From contig JAPPJY010000003.1 of the NCBI GenBank assembly GCA_028874335.1, positions 1,618 to 65,617 on the forward strand: a stretch of DNA of 64,000 bases. Direction: 5' to 3'. A program made the translations under genes and the position numbers. Source of the DNA: Gemmatimonadota bacterium. GTDB taxonomy: Bacteria > Latescibacterota > UBA2968 > GCA-2709665. Positions 18,989 through 35,168 of the stretch are shown here, in pieces; the stretch's first letter is position 1; the number at the start of each line of letters is the position of its first letter. Below the pieces are notes generated by a model. It saw only the letters and a program-made list of their open reading frames with translations, was not told where the DNA came from and searched no databases.

Positions 18989-20995
18989 ATGGCCGGCGCT
19001 GAACGAACAGCCGAAGCAATTGAACCGGACGCGGCTCCCGCCGGGTCAGCGGGCGGGGTCACTGTCCGGTCCGTGGTTTCCGGCCTGTTGCTCGTCCTCG
19101 GCCTGGATGCCCTGGCGGTCCACCTCCGGTACGTCGTACACGGCTCGCTGATGACGTACAGCCATGTGCCGATGGCCATGCTCATCGTGTTTGTGCTGAT
19201 GATCATGGCCGGCGCGCTCCTGGCGCGGATATCCGGATGGAAGCTTGCGCCGGCGGAATGGCACGTCATTCTGGCCATGGGCGTCGTCGGCGCGGCTGTT
19301 CCCGGTTTCGGTCTGAGCGGCTATCTGCTTGGGTACATCGCATCCCCGTACTATTTCGCGACCGAAGTCAACGAATGGCATATCTACCTGCATCCGTACA
19401 TCAACCCCTGGCTGATCCCTTCAGACGAAGACAAGGCCGTCACGTGGTTCTTTGAAGGCGCTCCCAAAGGCGCGCAGGTCCCGTGGGATGCCTGGGTGCT
19501 TCCACTGTTGTGGTGGACCACGTTCATCGTCGCGGCATTCGTGGTCCTCGGCTGCGTGGCCGTCATCTTTCGCAGACAATGGGTACAGAACGAACGACTG
19601 GCATTTCCGGCGATGGCGCCCCTGATTCACATGGCGGAAGAACCCGGCAGTGGAAGATTCGCACTCCCTGATTTCACGAAGAACTACCTGTTCTGGATCG
19701 GCTTCGGGCTGGCCTTCGGAATGATCGCCTGGAACTGCATCAACTATTTCCTCCCCGGCTTTCCACGGTTTCCGGTCTATCGGGGCCGTTGGCTCTGGAT
19801 CGACCGTCAGCATCCGCCCGCCTATTTCTTCATCGGTCTGTTTACCATCTTCTTCTCCTATTTCGCCAGCCTAGACGTTCTGTTCAGCATCTGGTTCTTC
19901 GACCTGCTGTTCATTTCCGAAGGCGGCTGGCTGCACCGCCGGGGGTTTACGGCCATATCGCCGTACTATTACCGCGGCGTCTATTACTGGCAGACCAAGG
20001 GCGCATTCGCCATGCTGGCCGCCTCGGTCTTCTGGGTAGGCAGACGCCACATCAGGGACGTGTTCCGCAAGGCATGGAACCGGGACCATCCGATGGACGA
20101 CCGGGACGAACCGCTCTCCAGCCGTACGGCCGTCGTCGCCATGCTCGTCGGGCTCGCGTTCATGTGGCTCTGGCTCTGGCGCATCGGCTTCGACCCGCTT
20201 CTGGCGGCCCTGCTCCTTCCGGCGGTCATCTTCACGTATGTCGGCCTGGCCAAGATTCTCGCGGAGACCGGCATGCCGTACACCAACGTGCCGGCGGGTC
20301 CGTGGGGTCTCGTATCGCCTTTCATCGGGTCATCGACCGTCAACGAAAGCACGCGGGTCGCCCTCCGGTTCGCGTCCAGGATCACCTCCCACTTCAAGGG
20401 GCTCTTCCTGCCGGCCCTTGCGCACGCCGGGCGGGTTGCGGAGGGCGTCCGGGGCGGCCGGCGGCGTCTTGCGTATGCCGTCGTCCTCGCATTTATGGTC
20501 AGTTGGATCGCGAGTGTGCTGCTCACGATCCAGCTGGGATACCGGGACGGCGCCTACAATTTCAACTCCTGGGAAATCGTGCGCGCGGGGCCCAAGCATT
20601 TCGATGGCACCGCGACTTCCGTCAAGAACTTCCTGACAAAACCCCCGGATCCGCCCGTCTACCGCGAACATCCCGACTATATGGTGTTTTTCGGCCTGGG
20701 CGGCCTGGCCACGCTCCTGCTCATTTTTATGCGTCACCGTTTCGTATGGTGGCCGTTGCATCCTGTCGGACTGGCCATTTCGGGTTCGTACCTGGCCCGG
20801 CGAACCAGCTTGACGATATTGCTGGCATGGCTGGTCAAACTGGTCATGCTAAAGATGGGCGGGCCTTCCGTATACAGGAAATCGCGCCCCCTGTTCATCG
20901 GCCTGCTCGCCGGATATATACTCGGTGTCGCCCTCTCGGCCTTTATAGACGTCCTGTGGTTCCCGGAACGGGGCCACAGCGTTCACCGCTTCTGA
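18989..20995 (+). CDS. polytopic membrane protein, DUF6785/DUF6784-like (OPT-superfamily-like putative transporter)
   Basis: Many TM segments; VPWDAWVLPL, RRQWVQNERLAFP, RFVWWPLHPVG, GGPSVYRKSRPLFIGL. Confidence 0.75.
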   Translation: MAGAERTAEAIEPDAAPAGSAGGVTVRSVVSGLLLVLGLDALAVHLRYVVHGSLMTYSHVPMAMLIVFVLMIMAGALLARISGWKLAPAEWHVILAMGVVGAAVPGFGLSGYLLGYIASPYYFATEVNEWHIYLHPYINPWLIPSDEDKAVTWFFEGAPKGAQVPWDAWVLPLLWWTTFIVAAFVVLGCVAVIFRRQWVQNERLAFPAMAPLIHMAEEPGSGRFALPDFTKNYLFWIGFGLAFGMIAWNCINYFLPGFPRFPVYRGRWLWIDRQHPPAYFFIGLFTIFFSYFASLDVLFSIWFFDLLFISEGGWLHRRGFTAISPYYYRGVYYWQTKGAFAMLAASVFWVGRRHIRDVFRKAWNRDHPMDDRDEPLSSRTAVVAMLVGLAFMWLWLWRIGFDPLLAALLLPAVIFTYVGLAKILAETGMPYTNVPAGPWGLVSPFIGSSTVNESTRVALRFASRITSHFKGLFLPALAHAGRVAEGVRGGRRRLAYAVVLAFMVSWIASVLLTIQLGYRDGAYNFNSWEIVRAGPKHFDGTATSVKNFLTKPPDPPVYREHPDYMVFFGLGGLATLLLIFMRHRFVWWPLHPVGLAISGSYLARRTSLTILLAWLVKLVMLKMGGPSVYRKSRPLFIGLLAGYILGVALSAFIDVLWFPERGHSVHRF

Positions 20996-21082
20996 TCGGC
21001 GTCCGGCGGCGAATGACCGGGGTCGGAAACCGGGTACCCGCAACCGTAGCGGCACTGCAGAAGCCTTGATCCGGATGACTCA

Positions 21083-24000
21083 ATGAAAACCCGTCCACGC
21101 ATCGGTCTTGCACTGGCGCTTCTCTTCGCCGCCGGGGCCTTCGCCGGCCTTGCGGTGGGACCGGAACGCGTCAACCCCTACCTGGCCGCAATCCTCGGAC
21201 TCCGTGCGCCCGTTGCTCCACCGTCCCCTTCCGTTCCGGAAGCGAACGCCACTTCGGTTCGCGTACTCGACACCGTATCGGACGCCGGCGTCATGTCGCA
21301 CGTTGCCGGCTTTACGGAACACCGGTCGCGAGTTCCCGGATACCCCGGACACGCCGCGGCCGCCGAGTACATCCGGCGCAGTTTCGAGAGCGCCGGTCTC
21401 CGGGACGTCCGCGCCGAGCCGTTCGACGTCACCTCGCCCGTAGACAAGGGCGGCAGCCTGAGGCTGTTGCGGGACAATGTCACGTTTCCCATCCACGCAA
21501 TCTGGCCGAACCTCGTCAAAACCTCCACGCTGCCGCGCGAAGGGGTCCGCACGCGGTTGATATACGGCGCGACCGGGGAATTTGCCGACTTCAACGGTCA
21601 TGCGCTCGAAGGCGCGGCCGTTCTCATGGAATTCAATACCCGGAACAACTGGCTGAACGCGGCCACGCTGGGGGCGGGACAAGTCATCTTCATCGAACCG
21701 GATTCGACTTTCTATACCGAAGCCGAGCAGAAATTCCTGCAGGTGCCCAACAGCGTGGAACGATTCTGGATCGACAAAGCGTCGGGGCAGGCTCTGAAGG
21801 CAATGCTCGAACAACGCGGCGAACTTGAAATCGAACTGCACGCGAGAATGGAGTGGGAGAAACACACCGCCCACAATATTCTGGGCTTCCTTCCGGGCTC
21901 GGATCCGATCCTGAAGGAACAGATCGTCGTGATCAATGCGTACTACGACGCCATGTCCGTCGTCCCGGCACTGGCGCCCGGCGCCGAGATGGCCGGCGGC
22001 GCCGTCGCCCTGATGGAACTGGTCAACTACTTCAAACGATATCCCCCGGGGCGCACCGTGCTCTTTCTGGCCACTTCGGCCCACCACCTGGGCTTTCGCG
22101 GCATCTGCGATTTCCTGGGCCGCCACGCCAGAAAGGAGAGGCATTTCGCGGCCCTGATGACCGACCCCATCGACATCCGACTCTTCATCGGCCTGGACCT
22201 GTCGAGCCAGACCGCTCAAATCGGCGTCTGGAACAGTACGCGCAACTTCTACTACAATCGGTTCTTCACACCTTTCGGAAAGAAGTTCGTCCGCATCTCG
22301 CAGGCGATCGCACCCGCCTTCGGCCTCGACCCCGATCAGGCGCTGCTGGACGGCATCAATCCCACGGGCGGAATGACCTGGGATATGTTCATCCCCGGTG
22401 CAAACCTGAAGACCGACGGCGAAGTCGTCCTCGAAGCCGGCACGCTCGCCCTGTCCCTGGTCACGCTGAACGATGCGCGTTTCCGGGTCGATACGCCCCT
22501 GGACCGGCCGGAAGGGGTAAACTTCGATAATCTCGCAAAACAGGTCCGCCTGATTACGGGTGTGCTCGACATTGCCCTGAACGACCCAACGCTCATCCCT
22601 GATTATCGACTCAATCCCGATGACAGGATGCGCGGTCTGAAGGGATTCGTACGTACCTTTCCCAGGCGCAGCATCGTACCCGACCGGCCCAAGCCGGGCG
22701 CCATCGCCGCGCTCAGGATGGGCATCGACAAATCGGTCAAGGGCGTCCGGCGCATCTATTACGACCTTGCCGACGAAAACGGTGAATTCTACATGCCGGG
22801 AATCGCCGAACGCCGCGTCTCCGTCAGCGCCTACTTTCAGGACCCGGAGACCGGTGAGATCACGTACGCACCAAATTACGGGCAGCAGGCGCGGATCTAC
22901 CGCGGCGACTTCGACATGGACTGGTGGATCTCCAAGAGAAACATCATCCTCTTTCCCTGTATCGCCACCGACTTCTACGATACCGTCGATCCGCGTTTCC
23001 TCACCAAGCTCTCCCAGATCAGCGTCTACGGTAGCGGCAACGTCACGCCACAGGAATACGGATACGCGATCGGCTTCGGCCCGACGGAACCCGTGGGCAC
23101 CCTGTTCACGCGTCCGGGCGAGAGAATCAAGGTCGCGATGAGGGCCGGCGGCGTCGCGGCGGGCTCCGGCGACATCGGCATCCGCTTCCTGTTGCTGAAT
23201 GCGACCAGCGCCGAGAGCGAGGAAATCGCAAGGGGCACGGGTTATCCCACGCTCACCCACGGATCGTTTGCGCGCACCTCCTTTCTGGCCGCGCGGGACA
23301 TGTGGACCCTGAACGAAGCCCGGAAGCAGGAGATGCAGAAATACGCCATCGAAAACCAGCGTCTGAACATGCTGCACGGCCAGGCCCGCCTCCACCTGGA
23401 CATGGCCGAAGCCGCGATGTCGCAGAGTCGCTGGGACGTCTTCATGAAGCATACCCGCGCGGCCCTCGGCATCGAATCGCGCGCCTATCCGGACGTCAAG
23501 GACACGCAGAACGACGTGGTGCGCGGCGTCGTCTTCTTCATGGCCCTGGTCATCCCATGCGCATTTTTCACAGAACGCCTCATCTTCACTGCCGTGGATA
23601 TCCGGAGGCAGATCGCGGGATTTATCGGTATTTTCGTTCTCATCTGGGTTTTCCTTTCGAACGTGCATCCGGCGTTCGAGATCTCCAATCCCCTGGTCGT
23701 GCTGCTCGCCTTCGTCATTCTCGCGCTGGCGGTGTTCGTGATTTCACTCGTTTTCAATCGGTTCAACGAAACCATGCGCCGGTTACGGGTCCCGGAAGTG
23801 CGCTTGCATGAAACCGACGTGGGTCGAATCTCCGCCTCCCTGGCGGCCTTTCAGCTCGGCATCGCAAACATGAAACGCCGCAAATTGCGCACGGCGCTTA
23901 CGTTCACCACGCTCCTGCTCCTCACGTTTACGGTACTCTCGTTTACGTCCATCACAACGGCTCTCGAATTTCGCCGGATTCCCCTGGGCACCGAGGGTCC

Positions 24001-25618
24001 GTACCCCGGAATGCTCATCCGCAGCAAGTTCTGGGGTCCGCTGGAAGACGTCGTCTACGATTATGCCGTCACGCATTTCCGGGAATCCGCGATAACGGCC
24101 CCTCGAAGCTGGTACTATACGCGGGAGAAAAAGATCATCCCCGTCGAGTCCGAAAACAGCTCCACACACGTACTCGGCGTTCTGGGAATGACGCCTGAGG
24201 AGGCGGACGTGACCGGCGTCCACAAGACACTGAAGGTCGGCAGGTGGTTCCGTCCGGGAGAATCCGCGTGCATACTGCCGGAAAAGATAGCGGAACTCCT
24301 CGGCGTGGACCCGGGCCGGCTTGAAGCGTCACACGTCCGGATATTCGGCGAGTCGTTGCCGGTGATCGGCCTGATCGACGCCGGGGCGTTCAGCGAGCTC
24401 AAGGACCTCGATGAGGAACCCCTCAGTCCCGCTGACTTCAAGCTTACCGATGAGGAAGCCATCGAACAGATGACCACCCAGGAAACGCGGGAAAAACAGG
24501 GCCTGGAACAACCTGAAGTCGAAATCATGCCCTTCGAGCACATCAACCCCGACGACATCCTGATCGTCCCGTACGCGTTCCTGCGCCAGGTGGGCAGCCC
24601 GCTCCAGTCGGTCGCCCTCCGGTTCGACGCCGGATCAGACGTGGAGAGCAACGTCAAGGAGCTTCTGTCCAGGCTCTCGGTTGTACTGTTCGCGGGTCTT
24701 CCGGAAGCGGACGGTCGCGTCAACGTCTCGATTTTCAGTTCCCTTGGCGACACGTCGAGACGCGGGATGAGCGATCTCTTTATTCCCATCCTCATCGCCT
24801 CGCTCATCGTCCTGAATACCATGATGGGTTCCGTGTACGAACGGTTTCGGGAAATCGGCGTCTATTCCGCGGTGGGCCTGGCGCCGGTCCACGTCGCTTT
24901 TCTGTTTATCGCGGAAGCCTGCGTCTACGCCGTCCTCGGCACGGTGAGCGGCTACATGCTGGGCCAGGCCGTTGCGAAGCTGCTTCTCTGGCAGGGCTGG
25001 CTCTCGGGCGTCACGGTCAACTATTCCGCCCAGTCGGCCGTTGTTTCGTCCGCCCTGGTCATGGCCGTCGTCATCCTGTCAACCCTCTATCCTGCCAGGC
25101 AGGCATCCCTGATGGCGGTGCCGGACGTATCCCGCCGCTGGAAAATCCCCGAGCCGGAAGGCGACGACTGGCGTTTCGAATTCCCGTTTACGGTTGGCGG
25201 AAACGATGTATTCGGGCTCTGTGTGTTCCTAACGGACTACTTTGATTCCCACAGCGGCGAAGCGATGGGGGCGTTCTACACGGACGGTGCCCATCTGTAC
25301 GGGAAGGGCGGCGCCGGTGAGAGCGGATACGCAATCCGCACGACCCTGTGGCTGGCGCCCTTCGATCTGGGCGTCAGCGAGGAGCTTCGCTTCGAGGCGG
25401 AACCCACCGGCCAATTCGATATCTATACCCTCACGCTCACCCTCAGGCGGCGCTCCGGAGAAGTGGCTTCATGGCGGCGGGTCAACCAGGGTTTCATGAA
25501 TACCCTGCGCAAGCAGTTTCTCATCTGGAGAACCGTGGACCCGGCCGAGAAAGCGGCGTACAGGGAAAAAGGCATGCGGATGCTCGTCTCGGACGAACCG
25601 GAGGCGAAACCGGCCTGA
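21083..25618 (+). CDS. giant membrane protein: M28-peptidase-like/PA ectodomain fused to an FtsX/MacB-like permease
   Basis: SRVPGYPG, NILGFLPG, AYYD..VPALAPGA, RTVLFLATSAHHLG (M28-like); RRKLRTALT, VLNTMMGSVYERFREIGVYSAVGL, FIAEA (FtsX). Confidence 0.85.
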   Translation: MKTRPRIGLALALLFAAGAFAGLAVGPERVNPYLAAILGLRAPVAPPSPSVPEANATSVRVLDTVSDAGVMSHVAGFTEHRSRVPGYPGHAAAAEYIRRSFESAGLRDVRAEPFDVTSPVDKGGSLRLLRDNVTFPIHAIWPNLVKTSTLPREGVRTRLIYGATGEFADFNGHALEGAAVLMEFNTRNNWLNAATLGAGQVIFIEPDSTFYTEAEQKFLQVPNSVERFWIDKASGQALKAMLEQRGELEIELHARMEWEKHTAHNILGFLPGSDPILKEQIVVINAYYDAMSVVPALAPGAEMAGGAVALMELVNYFKRYPPGRTVLFLATSAHHLGFRGICDFLGRHARKERHFAALMTDPIDIRLFIGLDLSSQTAQIGVWNSTRNFYYNRFFTPFGKKFVRISQAIAPAFGLDPDQALLDGINPTGGMTWDMFIPGANLKTDGEVVLEAGTLALSLVTLNDARFRVDTPLDRPEGVNFDNLAKQVRLITGVLDIALNDPTLIPDYRLNPDDRMRGLKGFVRTFPRRSIVPDRPKPGAIAALRMGIDKSVKGVRRIYYDLADENGEFYMPGIAERRVSVSAYFQDPETGEITYAPNYGQQARIYRGDFDMDWWISKRNIILFPCIATDFYDTVDPRFLTKLSQISVYGSGNVTPQEYGYAIGFGPTEPVGTLFTRPGERIKVAMRAGGVAAGSGDIGIRFLLLNATSAESEEIARGTGYPTLTHGSFARTSFLAARDMWTLNEARKQEMQKYAIENQRLNMLHGQARLHLDMAEAAMSQSRWDVFMKHTRAALGIESRAYPDVKDTQNDVVRGVVFFMALVIPCAFFTERLIFTAVDIRRQIAGFIGIFVLIWVFLSNVHPAFEISNPLVVLLAFVILALAVFVISLVFNRFNETMRRLRVPEVRLHETDVGRISASLAAFQLGIANMKRRKLRTALTFTTLLLLTFTVLSFTSITTALEFRRIPLGTEGPYPGMLIRSKFWGPLEDVVYDYAVTHFRESAITAPRSWYYTREKKIIPVESENSSTHVLGVLGMTPEEADVTGVHKTLKVGRWFRPGESACILPEKIAELLGVDPGRLEASHVRIFGESLPVIGLIDAGAFSELKDLDEEPLSPADFKLTDEEAIEQMTTQETREKQGLEQPEVEIMPFEHINPDDILIVPYAFLRQVGSPLQSVALRFDAGSDVESNVKELLSRLSVVLFAGLPEADGRVNVSIFSSLGDTSRRGMSDLFIPILIASLIVLNTMMGSVYERFREIGVYSAVGLAPVHVAFLFIAEACVYAVLGTVSGYMLGQAVAKLLLWQGWLSGVTVNYSAQSAVVSSALVMAVVILSTLYPARQASLMAVPDVSRRWKIPEPEGDDWRFEFPFTVGGNDVFGLCVFLTDYFDSHSGEAMGAFYTDGAHLYGKGGAGESGYAIRTTLWLAPFDLGVSEELRFEAEPTGQFDIYTLTLTLRRRSGEVASWRRVNQGFMNTLRKQFLIWRTVDPAEKAAYREKGMRMLVSDEPEAKPA

Positions 25619-25796
25619 AAGACGACCCGGCGAAGCTGAACTGATTCGTTTTCCAGACATCGCGATACGGAATTTGGCTTTGCAAAATCACTCTTTGATT
25701 GTATTTTTCAGGCCTTTACCCGTAGCGCGGCTTCGCTTTGCTCGGCCGGAACCAATCAGGTGACAGGAAACTCGCGCGGCCGTTTGATGAATCAAT

Positions 25797-25905
25797 CACT
25801 CCCCCCTTGAGGGGGAGTCGCAGAAGCCGAGCCGACCCCTGAGACGCCGCGCTGAGCTTGTCGAAGCGTTGTCGAAGGGCCGGCGACAGCTGATGCGGTG
25901 GGGGG
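25797..25905. repeat. nested palindromic REP-like element
   Basis: ACTCCCCCCTTGAGGGGGAGT hairpin...GCTGATGCGGTGGGGGG enclosing CCCTGAG[..CGCTGAGCTTGTCGAAGCG]TTGTCGAAGGG. Confidence 0.6.
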
Positions 25906-26000
25906 ATTGCAACAACATACCGAATGCAAGCAGCATGATCAGACATGTACGAAAATGCACCGTAGTCTCACTGTAAGACTTTAAAACGCATCGACCTGCC

Positions 26001-28421
26001 ATGGCCTTTCTCGATCGAATTCGCAGGCGGAAATCCAATCCGTACCAGGAAATCGAAGAGTACCGGGATCTGCTTGATGTCCCCAAGGAGTTCGAAGAGG
26101 GCTTCAACTCCAAGACCATTCTCGGTGCACTCTTCGTTTCCGTCATTATGGTTCCGGGCAACATCTACCTGGAACTCATGGTGGGACATTCCGTCGGCGC
26201 CGCCGCCCAGTGGGTGACCATCATCCTGTTTCTGGAACTGGCCAAGCGCTCGTTCACCGTGTTGAAGAAGCAGGAGCTCTACCTGCTCTATTATGTCACC
26301 AGCGCCCTGGTCGCCCGCGAAACCGGAATGTTCGAAGGCCTGCTCTGGCAGCAATACTACGTCCAGTCTCCCGCAGCGAAGCAGTTCGGCATCTCCCACC
26401 TCATCCCCCGATGGTGGGCGCCCCCGCCCGATTCACCCGCGCTGATCGATCGGACCTTTCTCCATCAGGACTGGCTGCTGCCTATCTCCCTGCTCGTTTT
26501 GGGAATGATCATGGGGCGCATCCAGTGGTTCACCGCCAGTTACGTACTCTTCCGCATCACCTCCGACTACGAGCGCCTGCCGTTTCCGTTCGCGCCGATC
26601 AACGCGCAGGGCGCTATGGCGCTTGCCGAAGAGAGCAGCGGCCAGTACAGCTGGCGTTGGCGGGTCTTCAGCATCGGCGCCGTGATCGGCGTGGTATTCG
26701 GCTCCGTCTACGTGGCTGTGCCCGCCATTACCGGCGCGTTCATGGAGAGCCCGCTTCAGCTCATCCCCATCCCATGGGTGGATTTTACCCAGTACACGGG
26801 ATATTTCCTGCCGGCCACGCCGCTGGGCTTCACACTGCACCTGGCCCCCATCTTCGCCGGGCTGCTGGCGCCCTTCTGGGCTGTCATGGGCGCATTCATC
26901 GGCGTCGCCATCCACACCGCGGCGGGCCCCATCCTTTATTCCTACGGGTACATGCCCAACTGGTACATGGGCATGGATACCATCATGACCCACTTCGTCA
27001 CGGGCATCGATTTCTGGATGAGCTTTGGGATCGGCATCACCTTCGCCATCGCAATCATTGGATTCTACCAGGTCTGGACCGGCGTCCGAACCGCGCGTGT
27101 GGAGAAAAAAGAAAAGGGAAGCTGGACGCCGCCGCCCGGCCGGGGAGACTTCCGGATCTGGATCTGCATCGTGCTCTTCTGTCTTGCGAGCCTCTATACC
27201 ATAATCCTTGCCAAGGTCCTCTTCCCTGACCTTGTAAGCACCGTTCTGCTCATCTTCTTTTTCGTCTTCGCGTTCGTCTATACACCGTTGATCTCCTTCG
27301 TCAACGCCCGGCTGGACGGGCTGGTCGGACAGAACGTCAATATCCCCTATATCAGGGAAGCCACGATCTTTCTGAGCGGGTTCAGGGGTATCGAAATCTG
27401 GTTTGTGCCCTTCCCCCTGGCCAACTGGGGCGCTCAGGCCGAGACGTTCCGTCAGATCGAACTCACGGGCTCGAAATTCACCGGAATCCTGAAGGCTGAG
27501 GTCTTCATGATCCCGCTGATCCTTCTGACCAGTTTCATGTACTGGTCCTATATCTGGAAGCTGGCGCCCATTCCCTCTTCCTCCTACCCCTACGTCCAGA
27601 TGATGTGGCCGCTACGGGCGCTCCAGAGCAGCGTCTGGTACACCGGCACCATGCAGGGTGAGGTGGAGCACGACCCGTCCTCCGGAACCGTATCGTTCCA
27701 GCCGAGCAATCTGCCCGACGGCAACTGGTGGTACTGGCGCGCCCGCGCCTCGGCCGACGCGCACATCGATGACCATGAACAACGCGCTTACGGACCGTGG
27801 TCCCGCGTTGGGTATTTCTATACGAACTTCAAGAGTCCCGAAAAGCCGCTCGTGCCGCCGCTTCCGGTGGACCGGTCGGCGCCGGACATTTCCGAAGCGT
27901 TGCGGTTGGGCCTGCCTTCGGCGCCGGCGTTGCGGAGTCCGGATGACGGAAGCCACGCGGACAACCCCAACCCCAACCTGGTTGTGCTCGCCGCGCGGGA
28001 CCCGGAGGGGCGGGATCTTGTCTATCAGTTCGAAGTGGATCAGGTGCCCTCCTTCGACGGTTCCTTTCTGCAGAGTTCGGACGACGAGCCGATCCTGTTC
28101 GAAGCCATCAAGCCGGTCGTGATCGCCATCGGACTCGTCGTCGGCCTGGTCTCGTTCGTGGTTCTGTCCGTCCTGGGCCTGCCGGTCCTGCTCATCTTCG
28201 GATACATACGGAGTCTGACGAGCATTCCCCACGTGATGATCACCGAGATCATCGGTGCGCTCCTCGCGCGGTACTATTTCTGGAAGCGTTTCGGAAGACA
28301 GCAATGGCGCCTCTACGCGGCGGTGTTGTATGTCGGATTCTCGGTGGGCATGTCCCTGGTGGGCATGGCCTCCGTCTCCATTGCAATGATACAAAAGGCC
28401 GTCTCGGTACTGTTGTTCTGA
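26001..28421 (+). CDS. OPT-like 'peptide transporter' membrane protein with an inserted extracytoplasmic Fn3-like domain
   Basis: EYRDLL..P..FEEGF, AAQWVTIILF, SDYERLPFPFAP, IPYIREA, APIPSSSYPY; hydrophilic insert near the C-terminus. Confidence 0.75.
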   Translation: MAFLDRIRRRKSNPYQEIEEYRDLLDVPKEFEEGFNSKTILGALFVSVIMVPGNIYLELMVGHSVGAAAQWVTIILFLELAKRSFTVLKKQELYLLYYVTSALVARETGMFEGLLWQQYYVQSPAAKQFGISHLIPRWWAPPPDSPALIDRTFLHQDWLLPISLLVLGMIMGRIQWFTASYVLFRITSDYERLPFPFAPINAQGAMALAEESSGQYSWRWRVFSIGAVIGVVFGSVYVAVPAITGAFMESPLQLIPIPWVDFTQYTGYFLPATPLGFTLHLAPIFAGLLAPFWAVMGAFIGVAIHTAAGPILYSYGYMPNWYMGMDTIMTHFVTGIDFWMSFGIGITFAIAIIGFYQVWTGVRTARVEKKEKGSWTPPPGRGDFRIWICIVLFCLASLYTIILAKVLFPDLVSTVLLIFFFVFAFVYTPLISFVNARLDGLVGQNVNIPYIREATIFLSGFRGIEIWFVPFPLANWGAQAETFRQIELTGSKFTGILKAEVFMIPLILLTSFMYWSYIWKLAPIPSSSYPYVQMMWPLRALQSSVWYTGTMQGEVEHDPSSGTVSFQPSNLPDGNWWYWRARASADAHIDDHEQRAYGPWSRVGYFYTNFKSPEKPLVPPLPVDRSAPDISEALRLGLPSAPALRSPDDGSHADNPNPNLVVLAARDPEGRDLVYQFEVDQVPSFDGSFLQSSDDEPILFEAIKPVVIAIGLVVGLVSFVVLSVLGLPVLLIFGYIRSLTSIPHVMITEIIGALLARYYFWKRFGRQQWRLYAAVLYVGFSVGMSLVGMASVSIAMIQKAVSVLLF

Positions 28422-28508
28422 GCAATGGCTTTGGTTCCACCCGCATCTATTATGTCGGATTGAATTGTCGCATCCGGACCGTTCGATCAAACACCCCAGG
28501 ACGGCAGC

Positions 28509-29066
28509 ATGTCAGCCGCGATCGGCATGATCGAAGTCGAAGGCGTCGCCGGGATTATTCTCGCGTCGGACGCCGCCTGCAAGGCCGCCGGCGTGGACCT
28601 TCTGGGCTGGGAGTCCATCGGCGGCTTCACCACCGTCTTTCTTGGCGGATCCATCAGCAGGGTGGCGACGGCGCTCAAGAGTGGCGAAGAAGCGGCCAGA
28701 GAGGTTGCGGGGCACGTCGTGGCGGCGCCGATGACACACCCCGAACCCGCCTGCCGGGAATACGTTTCAAATGAAATCGCAACGGAGCGGCGCACGCCGA
28801 CCGGCGCGCTGGGTCTGATCGAGACGAGAGGATACGGCGCGCACGTCACCGCCAACGACAATATGGTGAAGGCGGCCGACGTCCGGGTCTTCAACGTGCT
28901 CACCGTACACAACCGGGTGGTCTGCTCCCTTATACTTGGGGACGTGGCTTCCGTGACCGAGGCCCTGCCCGTGGGTCGCGCGAGCATCGAGACAGGAGAG
29001 AATTTCCTCGGCGCCGCCCTCATCCCCAAGCCCCTGCCCGACGTCCTGTGGGCATTCGGCCCCTGA
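28509..29066 (+). CDS. bacterial microcompartment shell protein, two BMC domains
   Basis: AIGMIEV...DAACKAA and ALGLIETRG...DNMVKAADV...GDVASV. Confidence 0.92.
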   Translation: MSAAIGMIEVEGVAGIILASDAACKAAGVDLLGWESIGGFTTVFLGGSISRVATALKSGEEAAREVAGHVVAAPMTHPEPACREYVSNEIATERRTPTGALGLIETRGYGAHVTANDNMVKAADVRVFNVLTVHNRVVCSLILGDVASVTEALPVGRASIETGENFLGAALIPKPLPDVLWAFGP

Positions 29067-30235
29067 GCGCCGTCGTGTCCGCACGAAATCATGCCCTGGG
29101 GATTCTGGAGACCCGCGGCATGACCGCGCTTGTCGCCGCCCTGGACGCCATGCTGAAAACCGTGGACGTCAGGGTCCTGGGGCGTCACGGCGTTGGATCC
29201 GGCTGGCTGACCGTCGTGATCGAAGGCGTCGTTTCGGACGTGGAGGCCGCCATTCGGATCGGGCGATCCGAGGCCGAGAACCACGGCGAGTTGATCAGCG
29301 CCGATGTGATCGCCGGCCCGGCCCCGGGCGCCCTCGCGTCCATGCCGCACATGGCGGGCGCGGGCACGTCGAAACCGGTCGGCTCGCTGGCGATGGGCAT
29401 CCTCGAAACACGCGGAATGGTACCCCTCATCCGCGGCGCCGACGCCATGATCAAGAGCGCACCCGTCCACGTCGCCGGCTGGACTTCCATTGGCGGCGCG
29501 CTGGTTCATCTCGTGGTCCGGGGCGATATTTCATCGGTCCAGACTGCCCTGCAAGCCGGAAGAGCGTGCGCGGATGAAGTCGGGGAAGTCTACGCGACCC
29601 TGGCAATTCCCAGCCCTGAAGCGGGTATCGCCCCGCTGCTTCCGGATCCGCCGAATTCAGACGGGCGCGAGGAAGACGCCGGGGCGCTCGGTATTCTTGA
29701 AACAACGGGTTACGTGTCCGCGGTCGGCGGATCGGACGCGATGGTCAAAGCGGCCGACGTCGACCTCGTGCGCCTCGTCATCGCCAGCGGAGGCCGGGTG
29801 GACGCGCTGGTGAAAGGCGATCTCGACGCGGTCCAGGCGGCCGTGGAAGCCGGTATCGATGGCGCGCAGGAGGCCGGTGAACTGAATGCATCCTGTGTCG
29901 TTTCCCGCCCGTCTTCCGAAATCATGGCCTGCTTCGGCGGGAACACCGTCAGGAATACGTCAGGCTTGCATCAGGCGATGGGACTGATCGAAACGCGCAG
30001 CACCGTGGCCCTGGTCAAAGCCGTGGATCAGATGTTGAAGTCCGCGGACGTGGAATACGAGGGCCGGTACAAAGTGGGGTACTTTCTCACGGCAAGCGTC
30101 GTCCGGGGAGACGTCGGCGCGGTACGTGCCGCCCTGAATGTCGGCGCCGGGGAAGCGGAGAGGTACGGCGAACTGGTGTCTGCACACCTTATACCCCATC
30201 CCTATCCGGCGCTGGAAGAAAGGCTGATCCACTGA
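29048..30235 (+). CDS. bacterial microcompartment shell protein, four BMC domains (possibly the frameshift continuation of the upstream ORF)
   Basis: Four repeats of (A)(L/M)G(I/L)(L/I)ET...D(A/Q)M(L/I/V)K...G(D/V)...; no convincing RBS at GTG 29048 or 29075. Confidence 0.92.
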   Translation: MGIRPLSAVVSARNHALGILETRGMTALVAALDAMLKTVDVRVLGRHGVGSGWLTVVIEGVVSDVEAAIRIGRSEAENHGELISADVIAGPAPGALASMPHMAGAGTSKPVGSLAMGILETRGMVPLIRGADAMIKSAPVHVAGWTSIGGALVHLVVRGDISSVQTALQAGRACADEVGEVYATLAIPSPEAGIAPLLPDPPNSDGREEDAGALGILETTGYVSAVGGSDAMVKAADVDLVRLVIASGGRVDALVKGDLDAVQAAVEAGIDGAQEAGELNASCVVSRPSSEIMACFGGNTVRNTSGLHQAMGLIETRSTVALVKAVDQMLKSADVEYEGRYKVGYFLTASVVRGDVGAVRAALNVGAGEAERYGELVSAHLIPHPYPALEERLIH

Positions 30236-30263
30236 TCGATCGCTGACCTCCTGGGAATGATCG

Positions 30264-31433
30264 ATGATCCGTATTGACGATGCGGTTGTTACCGAACAAT
30301 TGCTCAAGGACAGACTGGGCGCTGAGCGGGAAGTCGAAATCTGCCCGCGGGCAAAGCTGACGCCGCTGGCGCTGGACTATCTGGCGGCCAACCGGGTCCA
30401 GGTATCCAGAAGAGAGGCGGCGGCCGCCGGTCCGCGGACTTCAGCGCCGGCCGCCCGTCGGAAATCCGGCGAACGGAAAGAATTCAAGGGCATCTTCTGC
30501 CCCAATATCGTCATTTTCGACAGCAATGACCGGATCAACTACGCGGAAATGGAGCGATATGTCAACTGGCTCATCGAAGCCGGCATCCACGGGTTGTATC
30601 CCAATGGAAGTACGGGCGAATTCGTGCGACTTTCCAGCGACGAGCGCAAGGAGGTCGTGCGCCTGGTCACGAACGTCAACCGGGGGCGCGTGCCCGTTCT
30701 GGCCGGCGCGAGCGAAGCCAACCTCCGCGACGTGCTCAGAATGAGCGAATACTACGCCGGCATCGACGTCGACGCCATTTCTCTCGTACCCCCGTACTAT
30801 TACGAGATCTCGGACACCAGCCTCTTCGAGTACTTCGCTGAGATCGCGAGACAGACGCCTCTCGACGTCCTTTTATACAATATCCCCCAGTTCACGCAGG
30901 AACTCACGCTGGACATCATGGAACAGTTGCTGCCCTTCGAGCGAATCATGGGTACCAAAGATTCCAGCCGGGATATGCCGCGGCTGATCAACACCATGCA
31001 TCGGCTGCGGGCGCAGCGCCCAGACTACGTGGTCCTGGTCGGCTGCGAGGAAATCCTGTGTCCATCCATTATGATGGGCGCCAGCGGGGGCACGATCGCG
31101 ACCTCCGGCATCATTCCCGAGGTCATTGTGGATATCTATGAAAAGACGCTTGCCGGCGACCTCGAGCGTGCACGCGGCATGCAATGCCGCATCCTGGACC
31201 TCATCAACCTGATGCTGCTGGGTGTGAACTTTCCGGAGGGATTCAAAACCGGTGTGGCCGTGCGCGGATTCGACGTCGGACCTCCGCGGCAGGCCATGAG
31301 CGACGAGGAAAAGGAATATCTCCTCAAGCTCGAGTCCCAGATCAGCTGCATCCTCAAGGATATGGGTTACGACGTGAATGGTGCGCGGGCGTGTCCCGTA
31401 ACCGACCTGCCGCCAATTGTCGACCGTACCTGA
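30264..31433 (+). CDS. DapA/NAL-family aldolase/dehydratase with BMC-associated N-terminal domain
   Basis: NGSTGEF, VPPYY, LYNIP, GTKDSS (Schiff-base Lys); N-terminal VVTEQLL...KLTPLALDY module. Confidence 0.9.
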   Translation: MIRIDDAVVTEQLLKDRLGAEREVEICPRAKLTPLALDYLAANRVQVSRREAAAAGPRTSAPAARRKSGERKEFKGIFCPNIVIFDSNDRINYAEMERYVNWLIEAGIHGLYPNGSTGEFVRLSSDERKEVVRLVTNVNRGRVPVLAGASEANLRDVLRMSEYYAGIDVDAISLVPPYYYEISDTSLFEYFAEIARQTPLDVLLYNIPQFTQELTLDIMEQLLPFERIMGTKDSSRDMPRLINTMHRLRAQRPDYVVLVGCEEILCPSIMMGASGGTIATSGIIPEVIVDIYEKTLAGDLERARGMQCRILDLINLMLLGVNFPEGFKTGVAVRGFDVGPPRQAMSDEEKEYLLKLESQISCILKDMGYDVNGARACPVTDLPPIVDRT

Positions 31434-31512: not shown

Positions 31513-32457
31513 ATGGCTGAAAACGCGCAGCGGCACAACCTCGTGGACCCGTTCAACCTGGATGCCGGCGACGGCTACGTCTGGCTGAAAGGCAACCTCC
31601 ACTCCCACACGACGAACTCCGACGGCAGGGCGTCGCCCCAGGAACGTCTGGACGGCTACGTGAGCCAGGGGTACGACTTCCTTTGTCTCTCGGACCACTA
31701 CCGGATCACCCGGATCGATTCCGTGGATTGTCCGGACGACTTCGTGCTCATTCAGGGCGCCGAACTGCATCCGGACAATCCGTTCGGCGGACAGAAACAC
31801 CATTTTCTCTGCCTGAACATCCACGAGGACCTGGACTCGGAGAACATGCCGCCCCAGCACGTGATCGACGCGGTTCAGGAACAGGGGGGCAGCACGTGGC
31901 TTGCCCACCCGTACTGGAGTTCGGTCAACATCCTGAGGGACACCGTTCCGCTCACGGGATTTGCCGGCGTGGAGGTATTCAACACAACGTGCCGACGCGC
32001 GGGCCGGGGGGAATCCGGCGTTCATTGGGACGACTGGATGGACCTGGAGAACAGGCTGTATCCCGCCCTGGCCAACGACGACTCCCACGCCCTCGAATCG
32101 GATAATCACGATACCTATGGGGGCTGGACGATGGTACGCGTGAAGGACCGGTCTCCAGCGGCCATTCTCGACGCGCTCGAACGGGGCGCGAGCTATTCGA
32201 GCACCGGCGCCCAGATTCGGAACATCACCCTGCGAAGAAGCGACGAGGAGAAACGGCCGGTCGAGGCCGCCGTCGAATGCTCCGAGGCCAGGTGTATCCT
32301 GGCCGTTTGCGATACGTTCGGAACCGAATACAGGAATTCCGGCAAATCCTTTACGAGCGCCACGTTCAACCTGCGGCCGGGCGCACGCTGGGTACGTTTC
32401 GAAGTGATCGGAACGGACGGCTCGAAAGCCTGGTCCAACCCGTTCGACCTCACCTGA
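31513..32457 (+). CDS. PHP-domain metallohydrolase (CehA/McbA-like)
   Basis: KGNLHSHTTNSDG, SDH, GAELH, AHPYW, ANDDSH, AWSNP. Confidence 0.88.
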   Translation: MAENAQRHNLVDPFNLDAGDGYVWLKGNLHSHTTNSDGRASPQERLDGYVSQGYDFLCLSDHYRITRIDSVDCPDDFVLIQGAELHPDNPFGGQKHHFLCLNIHEDLDSENMPPQHVIDAVQEQGGSTWLAHPYWSSVNILRDTVPLTGFAGVEVFNTTCRRAGRGESGVHWDDWMDLENRLYPALANDDSHALESDNHDTYGGWTMVRVKDRSPAAILDALERGASYSSTGAQIRNITLRRSDEEKRPVEAAVECSEARCILAVCDTFGTEYRNSGKSFTSATFNLRPGARWVRFEVIGTDGSKAWSNPFDLT

Positions 32458-32470
32458 GGCTGGCGTCGCG

Positions 32471-33208
32471 ATGGGACTCATCCTGACACCCAAACAGGTG
32501 GCAGCGTACCGCAAGGACGGTTACTTACTGGTACCGGATCTGCTGACGCCGCCTGAAATCGACGCCTTCCTGGAAGCGCAGGCGGAAACGGTGGCGCCGG
32601 AAATCCTGGAACTCGGCCTGCGCAGGCACACCGCGGATCCGCAATGGCGTTACCTGGCGTCGCATCCCCGTGTCTCCGGAATCGCGTCTCAGCTGCTGCA
32701 GGGTCCGGCGATGATCGTCCAGACCATGTACATGGAAAAGGCACCGCGCGGGGGCACGGGTATCGCGCTCCATCAGGACGCACACTATATCAGGAACGAA
32801 CCCGGCACGCTCATGGCGTGCTGGCTTGCGTTGAGCGATACCGACAGCAGCAACGGCGGGCTCTGCGTCGCCGCCGGCAGCCACCTGGCCCCCCTCCGGA
32901 ATACCCGTCCCCCTCGAGACAGCAGCGAACACGCCTCCTGGGTGAAAGATTACGCCATGCGAGGACCCGACGGCACGGAGTGGGCCGAAACCATGCACTC
33001 GCACGAGGTCGCCGGCGTAAGCCGCGATGAACTCACCTTCCTTACGGTTCCGCGAGGATCGGGCGTCTTCTTTACCGGCAGAACCATCCACGGCTCATTC
33101 GCGAACCGGTCCATGGGCAGGCCCCGGCTTGCATTCGCCATCCACTATGTGAGAGAGGGTACGTGGGTGTTTCGCCGGGACATCCAGGACCTCGCGCCGG
33201 CAAACTGA
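32471..33208 (+). CDS. PhyH-family dioxygenase
   Basis: LHQDAHY, WLAL...NGGL..AGSH, IHGSFAN...R. Confidence 0.9.
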   Translation: MGLILTPKQVAAYRKDGYLLVPDLLTPPEIDAFLEAQAETVAPEILELGLRRHTADPQWRYLASHPRVSGIASQLLQGPAMIVQTMYMEKAPRGGTGIALHQDAHYIRNEPGTLMACWLALSDTDSSNGGLCVAAGSHLAPLRNTRPPRDSSEHASWVKDYAMRGPDGTEWAETMHSHEVAGVSRDELTFLTVPRGSGVFFTGRTIHGSFANRSMGRPRLAFAIHYVREGTWVFRRDIQDLAPAN

Positions 33209-33221
33209 AGGGACCTCCACC

Positions 33222-34190
33222 ATGAAACGCGTTGCAAAGCCGGAAGGCGAATACAATATCGTCATCGAAGACGTCCCCGTACCTGAAGTCTCGCCCACGG
33301 AAGTGCTCATCCGGGCGGAGTGCAGTCTGATCAGCCGCGGTTCCGAGATCTGGCGGCGTTATATCCGTCCCGAAGCCATCGACCATCAAGCCATGGGCTA
33401 TTCGTTCGTGGGAGACGTTGTCGAGGTCGGCGCCCGCGTGGACGGCTTCTCCATCGGCGACCGTGTGGCGGCTCTTGCGCCGCACGCGGAGTACGTGGCC
33501 GTCGAAGTCGTGGACTCACCCCACCGGGCCCCGGTTGTGCATCTTCCGGACGCGGTCTCCTCGGAAGCCGCGACGTTCTGGCCGCTGAGCACCAGTTCCG
33601 TTCTCTGGATGCGCGAAATCGAGGCCCGCAAGGAAGACACGGTGGCTATACTGGGTCAGGGTCTCGTCGGCTCGATCTGCATGCAGGCGCTGAACGCGGA
33701 AGTGAACCCCCGGGTGATCGCTGTCGACGCGCTTCCCCTCCGGTGCGAACTGGCCGCAAGCCTGGGGGCGGACCACGTGGTGGACGCATCGCGCGAGGAT
33801 CCCGTAAGGGCCGTCAAAGATCTGACGGGCGGCGCAGGCGTGGAGATCGCGGTGGAGGCGGTGGGCGGCCGCGCCGGGGCGGCCGCGTTCGCGCAGGCGC
33901 AGGATATGGTGAAACGAAAAGGCCTGATCCAGGTGATCGGCCTGTATGAGGACGAGCCCCTGCCGCTCGACTCCGGAAAGATCCAGGGCCGGCGGATTGT
34001 CGGCGGGTACTCGGACGGCGGCAGACGTCCTTCGGGCTCCGACCGCGCCCTGCAGCTTCTCGCCCAGAATAAGATCCGCGCCGAAGCAATGATTTCCCAC
34101 CGATTCCCCTACCAGGAAGCGGCAGAGGCCTTCGACCTGCTGTATACGCGCCTGGGCGAAACGATGGGCGTCGTACTTGTATGGAAGTGA
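33222..34190 (+). CDS. medium-chain dehydrogenase/reductase (Zn-ADH fold)
   Basis: SLISRGSE, GYSFVG, LGQGLVG; lacks the canonical GHE zinc ligand. Confidence 0.87.
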   Translation: MKRVAKPEGEYNIVIEDVPVPEVSPTEVLIRAECSLISRGSEIWRRYIRPEAIDHQAMGYSFVGDVVEVGARVDGFSIGDRVAALAPHAEYVAVEVVDSPHRAPVVHLPDAVSSEAATFWPLSTSSVLWMREIEARKEDTVAILGQGLVGSICMQALNAEVNPRVIAVDALPLRCELAASLGADHVVDASREDPVRAVKDLTGGAGVEIAVEAVGGRAGAAAFAQAQDMVKRKGLIQVIGLYEDEPLPLDSGKIQGRRIVGGYSDGGRRPSGSDRALQLLAQNKIRAEAMISHRFPYQEAAEAFDLLYTRLGETMGVVLVWK

Positions 34191-34271
34191 CTGCAGGTGA
34201 CGCCGGGCCGGGAAAATGCCGGCTTCCGACCCCGATCGGCCAGCCCATGCATGTCGTAATCCGGAGGTTTT

Positions 34272-35168
34272 GTGAAAAACGGCTTCTATAAGGGCCACGG
34301 TCTGGGCAACGACTACATCGTCATGGACCCGGCGGAACTGGAATTTGAACTCACGCCCGGCAATATCCGCAACATCTGCGATCGCAACCGCGGTATCGGC
34401 GGCGATGGCATCCTCACCCTGGAACCCGGGAATGGCGCCGACTTCGGCCTGCGCATCCTGAATCCCGACGGCAGCGAGGCCGAAAAGTCGGGCAACGGCC
34501 TGCGCATCTTCGCCAGGTTCCTCCACGCCACCGGTCGGACGCGAAAACGCGACTTCACGGTGGACACGATCGGCGGCCGCGTGGAGATCCGGGTGCACCT
34601 GGACCATCACGGCGATGCCAGCCTCGCGACCGTCGAGATGGGACAGGCCGACTTCGATCCCGTCGCGCTGCCGTGTACGTTGACGGGGGGCGAGCTCATC
34701 GAACGGTCGATCACCGCCGCCGGCCGCGAACTGAGATTCACGGGCGTCAGCGTGGGGAATCCCCACTGCGTCATCTTCAAAGCCGCGCACGAGTCCTGGA
34801 CCCGCGACGACCTGCTCGAACTCGGCCCCGCCCTGGAGAATCACGAACTCTTTCCCAATCGCATCAACGTGCAACTGGCCGTACCCACGGGTCCGAAGGA
34901 AATCTTCATCCTCATCTGGGAACGCGGCGCCGGCGAGACGCAGGCATCCGGTTCCTCGTCCTGCGCGGCGGCGAGCGCGGCCGTCCGGCTGGGTCTGGCG
35001 GCATCTCCTGTAACCGTAAACGCGCCGGGCGGCGCCCTCCACGTCGCCGTCGACCCCCGGTTCCACCTGACCATGAAAGGGCCGGTCGCGGAGGTCGCCC
35101 TGGGGGCCCTGAGTCCGGCGTTCGTCAGGGAACTTCAGGACGACAACCGGGTTGACGCCTCCGGGTAA
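34272..35168 (+). CDS. dapF: diaminopimelate epimerase (Ser/Ser variant)
   Basis: KGHGLGNDY, GIGGDG, NPDGSEAEKSGNGLR, GNPHCV, FPNRINV, WERGAGET. Confidence 0.9.
   Translation: MKNGFYKGHGLGNDYIVMDPAELEFELTPGNIRNICDRNRGIGGDGILTLEPGNGADFGLRILNPDGSEAEKSGNGLRIFARFLHATGRTRKRDFTVDTIGGRVEIRVHLDHHGDASLATVEMGQADFDPVALPCTLTGGELIERSITAAGRELRFTGVSVGNPHCVIFKAAHESWTRDDLLELGPALENHELFPNRINVQLAVPTGPKEIFILIWERGAGETQASGSSSCAAASAAVRLGLAASPVTVNAPGGALHVAVDPRFHLTMKGPVAEVALGALSPAFVRELQDDNRVDASG

Follow-up and report, generated by a model that had tools for sequence, protein, structure and literature searches.

Adjacent genes for a two-domain and a four-domain microcompartment shell protein in Latescibacterota, and the asymmetric six-domain tile that they may form

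The window analysed here is a stretch of 64,000 nucleotides (nt) from a Gemmatimonadota bacterium (GTDB lineage Bacteria; Latescibacterota; UBA2968; GCA-2709665), taken from GenBank assembly GCA_028874335.1, contig JAPPJY010000003.1, forward strand, and corresponding to C88:1618-65617 of the genome that we designate G000. Two adjacent open reading frames (ORFs) in the window encode shell proteins of bacterial microcompartments (BMCs), with two domains of family PF00936 in ORF1 and four in ORF2. Comparison with relatives makes it near certain that these are two separate, conserved and co-occurring genes. The reading that we favour, and hold to be probable as a whole, is that the two genes form one operon translated without recoding, and that one chain of each product joins the other in a single asymmetric pseudohexamer of six domains; it is carried by the gene structure, by conservation and co-occurrence, by the individuality of the six domains and by their edge motifs. 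The original prediction, made from the letters of the window alone, had offered two explanations: a single six-domain chain of about 575 amino acids (aa), obtained by a -1 slip or by restoring one lost C, or an obligate pair of a two-domain and a four-domain chain. The former is not borne out, whereas the latter is supported by strict co-occurrence, by adjacency and by six position-specific domain clades, and weakly by structure prediction; comparative genomics argues strongly, and modelling modestly, for a 2+4 partnership.

The shell genes, their domains and the proposed slip site are as follows (branch support is that of the Shimodaira-Hasegawa-like approximate likelihood ratio test, SH-aLRT; AF2 denotes AlphaFold2).

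28509 to 29066, forward strand: ORF1, two-domain BMC shell protein (D1 and D2) of 185 aa, from ATG at 28509 to TGA at 29064-29066; PF00936 twice
28518 to 28748, forward strand: BMC domain D1, about residues 4-80 of ORF1; Pfam match, own clade with SH-aLRT 100
28806 to 29042, forward strand: BMC domain D2, about residues 100-178 of ORF1, the most divergent position; Pfam match, SH-aLRT 99
29060 to 29066, forward strand: CCCC (29060-29063) followed by the TGA of ORF1, the slip site of the original prediction; read from the sequence
29075 to 30235, forward strand: ORF2, four-domain BMC shell protein (D3 to D6) of 386 aa from GTG, stop TGA at 30233-30235; PF00936 four times
29084 to 29326, forward strand: BMC domain D3; Pfam match and AF2 model, SH-aLRT 90
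29384 to 29623, forward strand: BMC domain D4; Pfam match and AF2 model, SH-aLRT 99
29678 to 29923, forward strand: BMC domain D5; Pfam match, AF2 model and structure match, SH-aLRT 97
29969 to 30217, forward strand: BMC domain D6; Pfam match, AF2 model and structure match, SH-aLRT 100

PF00936 matches ORF1 in two stretches (E 2.2e-32, 111.3 bits) and ORF2 in four (E 7e-78, 257 bits; cut-off 24.5 for both), which bears out the predicted division of domains. The whole genome yields eight matches to this family: the six described here and one in each of two single-domain genes of contig C32. The sequence likewise agrees with the prediction at the junction, where the 3' end of ORF1 reads GGC CCC TGA within the C4 run and the frame of ORF2, offset by +2 (that is, -1) from that of ORF1, is open across the site and runs for 486 codons from stop to stop. 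The linkers between domains, taken from the secondary structure of the predicted model, are about 20-25 aa long, roughly as had been proposed; the 20-aa junction linker proposed with them exists solely as a 12-aa C-terminal tail of ORF1 (ending AFGP) and about 5 aa at the head of ORF2. The true start of ORF2 is most likely GTG 29075, 8 nt 3' of the stop of ORF1, and not GTG 29048, which overlaps ORF1, because the former codon is conserved among relatives of the same genus and because the nearest ORF2 homologues in databases are annotated as 386 aa, with 100% coverage of the reading from GTG 29075. No purine run resembling a Shine-Dalgarno sequence lies directly 5' of either candidate start in the window, in line with the earlier remark that ORF2 lacks a clear ribosome-binding site; many other lineages show GGAGG-like sites at the junction.

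The two genes are found together throughout the phylum. Among 168 of its genomes (thresholds E<=1e-60 for ORF2 and E<=1e-35 for ORF1), ORF2 has orthologues in 82, one copy per genome, and ORF1 in 84; both genes are present in 82 genomes, ORF2 alone in none, and ORF1 alone in two, which are fragmented metagenome-assembled genomes (MAGs), 85% and 77% complete. The genes are adjacent, on the same strand and with ORF1 first in 80 of the 82, their aligned ends being 15-48 nt apart (188 nt once); in the remaining two, MAGs of 690 and 820 contigs, they lie on different contigs. Across the two families sampled the orthologues are 46-66% identical, with many invariant residues. Separate homologues that do not co-occur had been named beforehand as evidence against the prediction; this turned out half each way, the two genes being separate in every case, yet always found together. 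At least 385 ORF2-like and at least 260 ORF1-like clusters are present in wider databases; these further homologues come from metagenomes, and some are named by their source as Gemmatimonadota or Latescibacterota MAGs. One genome (G096) has two ORF1-like matches, on contigs C304 and C118, and its ORF2 match adjoins the C118 copy only; the second match may reflect a strain mixture or a second copy.

The junction between the genes was compared over 37 loci: 17, the window included, from a search of 41 genomes (own genome included), and 20 more that belong to a different family of the phylum. Of the 14 other genomes of the genus in the 41-genome search, 13 carry the four-domain gene immediately preceded by the two-domain gene; so do two genomes, one of them fragmented, from a second genus of this family, and two from another family of the order. 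Both ORFs are intact at every locus, and a stop codon, which may be TGA, TAG or TAA, follows ORF1 in 37 of 37 (17/17 in the first set, 20/20 in the second). The frame of ORF2 relative to ORF1 is offset by -1 in 24 loci, by 0 in six and by +1 in seven. At 36 of the 37 loci the start of ORF2 either overlaps the stop of ORF1 or is at most 12 nt away from it; the exception is L051 (G097:C3:1152430-1156790), where a spacer of about 180 nt separates the two shell genes. Close spacing of stop and start, on one strand and in fixed order, is the arrangement associated with translational coupling, and with this spacing at all loci but one and the adjacency in 80 of 82 genomes, translation of ORF2 is probably coupled to that of ORF1.

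Within the genus, 11 loci share the -1 offset of the window, of which six, the window included, have GGCCCCTGA; at L019 the C4 run is kept but ORF1 stops 9 nt further on, where its stop and the start of ORF2 overlap as GTGA, and in four the run is missing (GGCTCC, GGACCC and, twice, GGTCCC). At L020-L022, also of this genus, the ORFs share one frame and are separated by TGA and three codons before GTG; L023 has an in-frame TAA and then GTG, L024 an ATGA overlap with AAGGAGG 5' of it, and L025 a GTGA overlap with GGAGGGGGG 5' of it. All six in-frame loci (L020-L023, L037 and L048) have one stop and 1-4 codons between the ORFs. The junctions of the second set include TGATG, ATG or GTG 4-12 nt past the stop, one ATG 10 nt before the stop, and GTG located 5-11 nt ahead of the stop and preceded by GGAGG-like runs. 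The slippery site and the -1 frame relation that would mark a programmed frameshift are thus not conserved, the C4 run being absent from four of 11 loci in the same frame and having no bearing on the other lineages, and the offset taking all three values over the 37.

The C run was also checked on assembled contigs of other sequencing runs, from two other studies. Record 4 of set X2 (28995-29711, 0 differences) and records 8 and 9 of set X3 span 29060-29063 without a gap, and no inserted or deleted base appears at these positions in the contigs from other runs, contrary to the suggestion of a lost C. Judged from these sequences, there is neither an assembly indel nor a conserved recoding signal at the junction. 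The 120 best homologues of ORF2 are 366-424 aa long (lengths of 212-676 aa were searched), and the 22 matches at E<=1e-30 among 1.84 billion representatives, searched without filters, are at most 387 aa, so that a fused six-domain protein of about 575 aa, for which a search among relatives had been proposed, was found in neither protein search. Of the 150 matches listed, the one long protein that was checked, P0291 (569 aa), contains two BMC stretches.

Each of the six domains has a character of its own. In a quick tree of 19 family members, each cut into its six domains, together with the two BMC-H genes of contig C32, D1 to D6 each form one clade of 19 rows with SH-aLRT of 90-100, and identity is 61-72% within positions versus 24-40% between them. 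Every position has its own conserved motif at the site of the BMC pore loop; D2 carries a conserved N-V-L-T-V-H-N-R-V-V-C loop where the other domains have the pore loop, and the loop motif of D6 is Y-K-V-G-Y-F-L-T-A. Common to all six is the edge motif D-x-x-x-K, invariant or at least 90% conserved in alignments of 121 rows. The lysine of this motif serves contacts between tiles, and titles of PDB entries refer to the corresponding residue of PduA, K26, as an 'edge' residue. Six distinct conserved positions, each with a tiling edge, are what a six-domain tile of fixed order predicts. An internal 3+3 duplication (D1 with D4, D2 with D5, D3 with D6) was considered, and no claim is made for it: the tree joins D2 with D5 on a weak branch only, flagged as a long-branch join, and the identities form no clear pattern (D1-D4 37.0%, D2-D5 33.2%, D2-D6 35.6%, D3-D6 40.2%, D3-D4 40.4%).

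Structure prediction gives ORF2 alone four BMC domains, with a predicted local distance difference test score (pLDDT) of 91.4 and a predicted template modelling score (pTM) of 0.89. Single domains of this predicted fold superpose on PduA, EutM and CutN with Z of 17-18 and root-mean-square deviations (rmsd) of 0.8-1.1 Å over 86-90 residues. The best structural match is 6NER, a synthetic tandem of BMC-H from the Haliangium ochraceum shell: D5-D6 of the model fit its chain with Z 27.9 and rmsd 1.3 Å over 177 residues (Foldseek template modelling (TM) score 0.89-0.92, normalised to the 6NER chain), and neighbouring domains are therefore placed like neighbouring protomers of a hexamer. Four domains in such a row would leave space for two more. 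Chains of PduT, compared as two-domain bodies, fit the ORF2 model poorly (rmsd of about 15-16 Å and Foldseek TM of 0.42-0.46, again normalised to the PDB chain), and the synthetic tandem and the natural PduT-type tandem may be connected differently around the ring.

The complex of ORF1 with ORF2 was predicted at the level designated 'weak support', with a median score of 0.49 (runs of 0.75, 0.48 and 0.49) against 0.00 for the best of three controls; the runs share at least 92% of contacts, and the partner pLDDT is at least 84. Of 80 solved complexes 58 attained the mark for this level, as did two of 110 mismatched pairs, and scores of 0.60 or less were those of only seven of the 80 solved complexes and of both passing mismatches. 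As a proxy for the six-domain body, in-frame relatives were read through their single stop to give a 575-aa chain with six full-length alignment rows, the best model of which reached pLDDT 81.1 and pTM 0.79. This fold is consistent with one compact body and does not prove a closed ring; the modelling as a whole agrees with the tile but is weak. An alignment in which homologues of ORF1 and of ORF2 were combined with the read-through chain was dropped: it misplaced the rows of ORF2, showing ORF2 of the window as 50% identical to the first row, although by tblastn it is 81-82% identical to the genome from which that row was taken.

A third gene, of the pyruvate aldolase family, accompanies the pair. 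It lies directly 3' of it in all 18 loci of one set and in 17 of the 20 of another and, at 67-77% identity in distant loci, is more conserved than the shell genes.

30264 to 31433, forward strand: class I aldolase of the dihydrodipicolinate synthase/N-acetylneuraminate lyase (DHDPS/NAL) family, 389 aa; PF00701, E 1.3e-55

The catalytic domain, from residue 74, is preceded by a conserved N-terminal add-on of about 48 aa, which aligns from residue 1, and by a linker of variable length rich in Pro, Ala, Ser and Thr (add-on and linker together at 30264-30490). The add-on contains the motifs M-[IV]-R-I-D-D and, further on, L-T-P-[LS]-A-x-D-[YF]-L; it has no Pfam match even at E<=10 and, by tblastn, no paralogue in its own genome. 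A search of a protein atlas with the add-on returned sub-threshold matches only (best 0.81), the third of which (0.77) is a cluster with PF15953 PDU_like in 12% of its members; a relation to PDU_like clusters is a lead only. The add-on may be a targeting or docking domain, and we propose the aldolase as a cargo or partner enzyme of the module.

The pair and the aldolase gene constitute a satellite locus, away from the main BMC locus of the genome, because the BMC-P genes and the core enzymes are situated on contig C32 and not beside the pair.

Contig C32 of G000, 96000 to 115000: main BMC locus (L032), identified by Pfam

This locus encodes PduL, a 474-aa protein, a BMC-H, a BMC-P, an aldehyde dehydrogenase, two further BMC-P, a class II aldolase, an acetate kinase and a second BMC-H (PF00596, PF00171, PF06130, PF00871, three PF03319 and two PF00936), and it has no tandem-domain tile of its own. 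Its make-up is that of the PVM/PVM-like type, assigned by Pfam content, the gene content of the type being that given by Axen 2014 and Sutter 2021 (PMC8217296).

A mechanism can be proposed on this basis. ORF1 would yield a two-domain chain and ORF2, from GTG 29075, a four-domain chain; coupled translation would favour equal amounts of both; and one chain of each, side by side, would form a single six-domain pseudohexamer with the size and the six tiling edges of an ordinary BMC-H hexamer. Having six different positions, such a tile would lack rotational symmetry and would possess a single central pore with a unique lining. The add-on at the N-terminus of the aldolase, followed by its flexible linker, would target the enzyme to the shell or to the tile, and the enzyme would make an aldehyde to be handled by the main PVM-like compartment, to which the three-gene module would thus contribute another enzyme that produces an aldehyde, together with a special tile to match. 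The role of the pore and the link of the aldolase as cargo are parts of the mechanism that we infer.

Several points weigh against a joint tile of this kind. Ring closure and 1:1 stoichiometry are deduced; as the window has no Shine-Dalgarno sequence before ORF2, coupling is judged from spacing; the score of the predicted complex does not rise above the 'weak support' level and, because BMC hexamers have been solved many times, may reflect likeness to known BMC-BMC interfaces and not specific pairing; and the six-domain proxy is an artificial chain with a six-row alignment, the other four models of which have pLDDT of 78.1, 75.5, 66.6 and 65.3. As to the module, the aldolase gene was not found in the flank of three of the 20 loci of one set (L036, L043 and L047), and the enzyme falls below every NCBIfam equivalog cut-off (the best, for N-acetylneuraminate lyase, giving 164 bits versus 281).

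Of the other explanations, a single gene, expressed by programmed -1 slippage on CCC at the TGA or split by a lost C, draws on real features of the window: a -1 slip would let CCC pair again with CCC immediately ahead of the stop, the frame of ORF2 is open across the site, the tail of ORF1 and the head of ORF2 together make one linker length, and GGCCCCTGA recurs in six of the 11 same-frame loci of the genus, with the C4 run kept at L019. The resulting single-chain hexamer is nevertheless ruled out for practical purposes, and we rate it extremely improbable: the stop is universal, the offset varies, C4 is lost in four of the 11, other lineages have overlapping stop and start codons with GGAGG-like sites, the contigs of other runs show no indel, and the two protein searches gave no fused protein, the gene calls being of 386 aa from the conserved GTG. 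Occasional read-through of the stop in the in-frame lineages, giving a minor fused chain beside the separate ones, would suit the six loci where one stop and 1-4 codons intervene, and the read-through chain folds with pTM 0.79; but the in-frame state is that of a minority and not of the window, the stops include TGA, TAA and TAG, the read-through context is not conserved and nothing demands such a product, which leaves this explanation very improbable. The resemblance of the ORF1 tail to half a linker might also suggest the decaying, functionless remnant of a once fused gene, an idea with next to no credibility given ORFs that are intact in 37 of 37 loci, 46-66% identical across families and kept in one copy in 82 genomes.

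A more serious alternative takes both genes at face value and assigns their products to different tiles, ORF1 forming a BMC-T-like homotrimer and ORF2 closing rings in another way, for instance with two single-domain BMC-H chains of the main locus, or as three chains extending over two rings. The domain count of ORF1 is that of a standard BMC-T, and two-domain BMC chains trimerise according to the catalogue of shell proteins (Sutter 2021, PMC8217296); the prediction of the 1:1 complex, for its part, lends the joint tile weak support. Against different tiles stand the 82 genomes with both genes versus none with ORF2 alone, the fixed order, adjacency and tight junctions, which fit equimolar partners better, the inability of four domains to close a six-fold ring alone and the irregularity of three-chain solutions, and the finding that D1 and D2 are as individual as D3 to D6 and have the same family distribution. 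We consider different tiles unlikely, and retain the joint tile of one ORF1 and one ORF2 chain.

Such a tile departs from the known shell components. The catalogue recognises six types of shell protein, each a homo-oligomer whose chains have one or two domains (Sutter 2021, PMC8217296). No published description of BMC chains with three, four or six domains, or of Gemmatimonadota shell proteins, was found, although supplementary tables may list them otherwise, and the literature found describes no heterodimeric pseudohexamer in its titles and the openings of its abstracts. Closest in type is BMC-T(s), as represented by PduT and CcmO, with which the pair shares non-permuted PF00936 domains within a chain, linkers and a hexagon-shaped pseudohexamer, and ORF1 the same domain count; it differs in that BMC-T(s) is a homotrimer of one two-domain chain with three-fold symmetry, whereas here chains of two and four domains would provide six different positions. 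With two PF00936 domains per chain as the defining feature, which ORF1 has and ORF2, with four, does not, ORF1 alone would pass as a BMC-T but the pair as a whole is not one. CcmO of NCBIfam is the best named match for both ORFs, below its cut-off (86 bits for ORF1 and 243 for ORF2 versus 270). The 6NER tandem illustrates that linked BMC-H-type neighbours still tile a shell; it is an engineered homotrimer with two identical domains per chain, unlike the natural pair with six diverged domains split 2+4.

A mixed composition as such has a precedent, CcmK3 and CcmK4 forming mixed hexamers. These are built of single-domain chains in variable ratios, in contrast to the covalent 2+4 layout, which would fix both composition and order. 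Their genes occupy a satellite locus of the beta-carboxysome and are thought to tune the permeability of the shell, and satellite 'EUT modules' (EutABC with an EutL-type tile) extend a main BMC by a signature enzyme and a special tile, both as set out by Sutter 2021 (PMC8217296). In ORF1, ORF2 and the aldolase-family gene the logic of the EUT modules recurs, with a different enzyme family (DHDPS/NAL class I aldolase) and a different type of tile. By this comparison the pair would be a tile of PF00936 domains that is heteromeric, split 2+4 and without symmetry, and in these respects new relative to the catalogue.

Chains with more than two PF00936 domains are not confined to this family. Five of ten proteins checked (P0249, P0252, P0260, P0261 and P0276; 286-330 aa) have three such domains, so that two chains sum to six. 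A locus scan with a three-domain query gave mostly runs of single-domain genes; two loci, L053 and L054, looked truly three-domain, and L053 was inspected. The three-domain gene there (L053:3004-3900) stands alone in an AT-rich genome, with no BMC-like ORF of at least 80 aa within 3 kb, and a homodimer is therefore the likely form of its product. Other combinations that add up to six domains therefore seem to be in use. A broader claim, that the 2+4 tile is the first natural one without rotational symmetry, that it is also the docking site for the N-terminus of the aldolase, and that a 'domains sum to six' rule embraces 3+3 as well, is tentative, and taken as a whole we think it rather doubtful.

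If the joint tile is real, it would represent a new class, in which gene structure and not symmetry sets composition, order and pore lining; it would bear on selective or one-off pores in shells and on the way in which cargo finds a given tile, and would offer a natural template for engineering asymmetric, singly addressable tiles. The pair is common, occurring in 82 of the 168 genomes of the phylum, and annotation should not treat pairs of this kind as frameshifted genes to be 'repaired'.

Positions 28400-30300 occur wholly or partly in 20 listed public runs, none of them an RNA run; 15 are labelled as metagenomes of sponge or marine origin, and coded organism names are given for the other five. 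Upstream of the pair, on the same strand (18989-28421), are genes for three large membrane proteins: one of 668 aa with DUF6785/DUF6784, one of 1511 aa with an FtsX-like domain, and one of 806 aa that matches no Pfam family, the tail of whose gene is kept beside the pair within the genus and not in distant loci. Downstream of the aldolase gene, again on the same strand (31513-35168), follow genes for a CehA/McbA-family metallohydrolase (PHP-like), a PhyH-family dioxygenase, a zinc-type dehydrogenase and a diaminopimelate epimerase (DapF), the last above its NCBIfam cut-off; of these four, only the metallohydrolase gene is visible in the short flanks of the same-genus loci.

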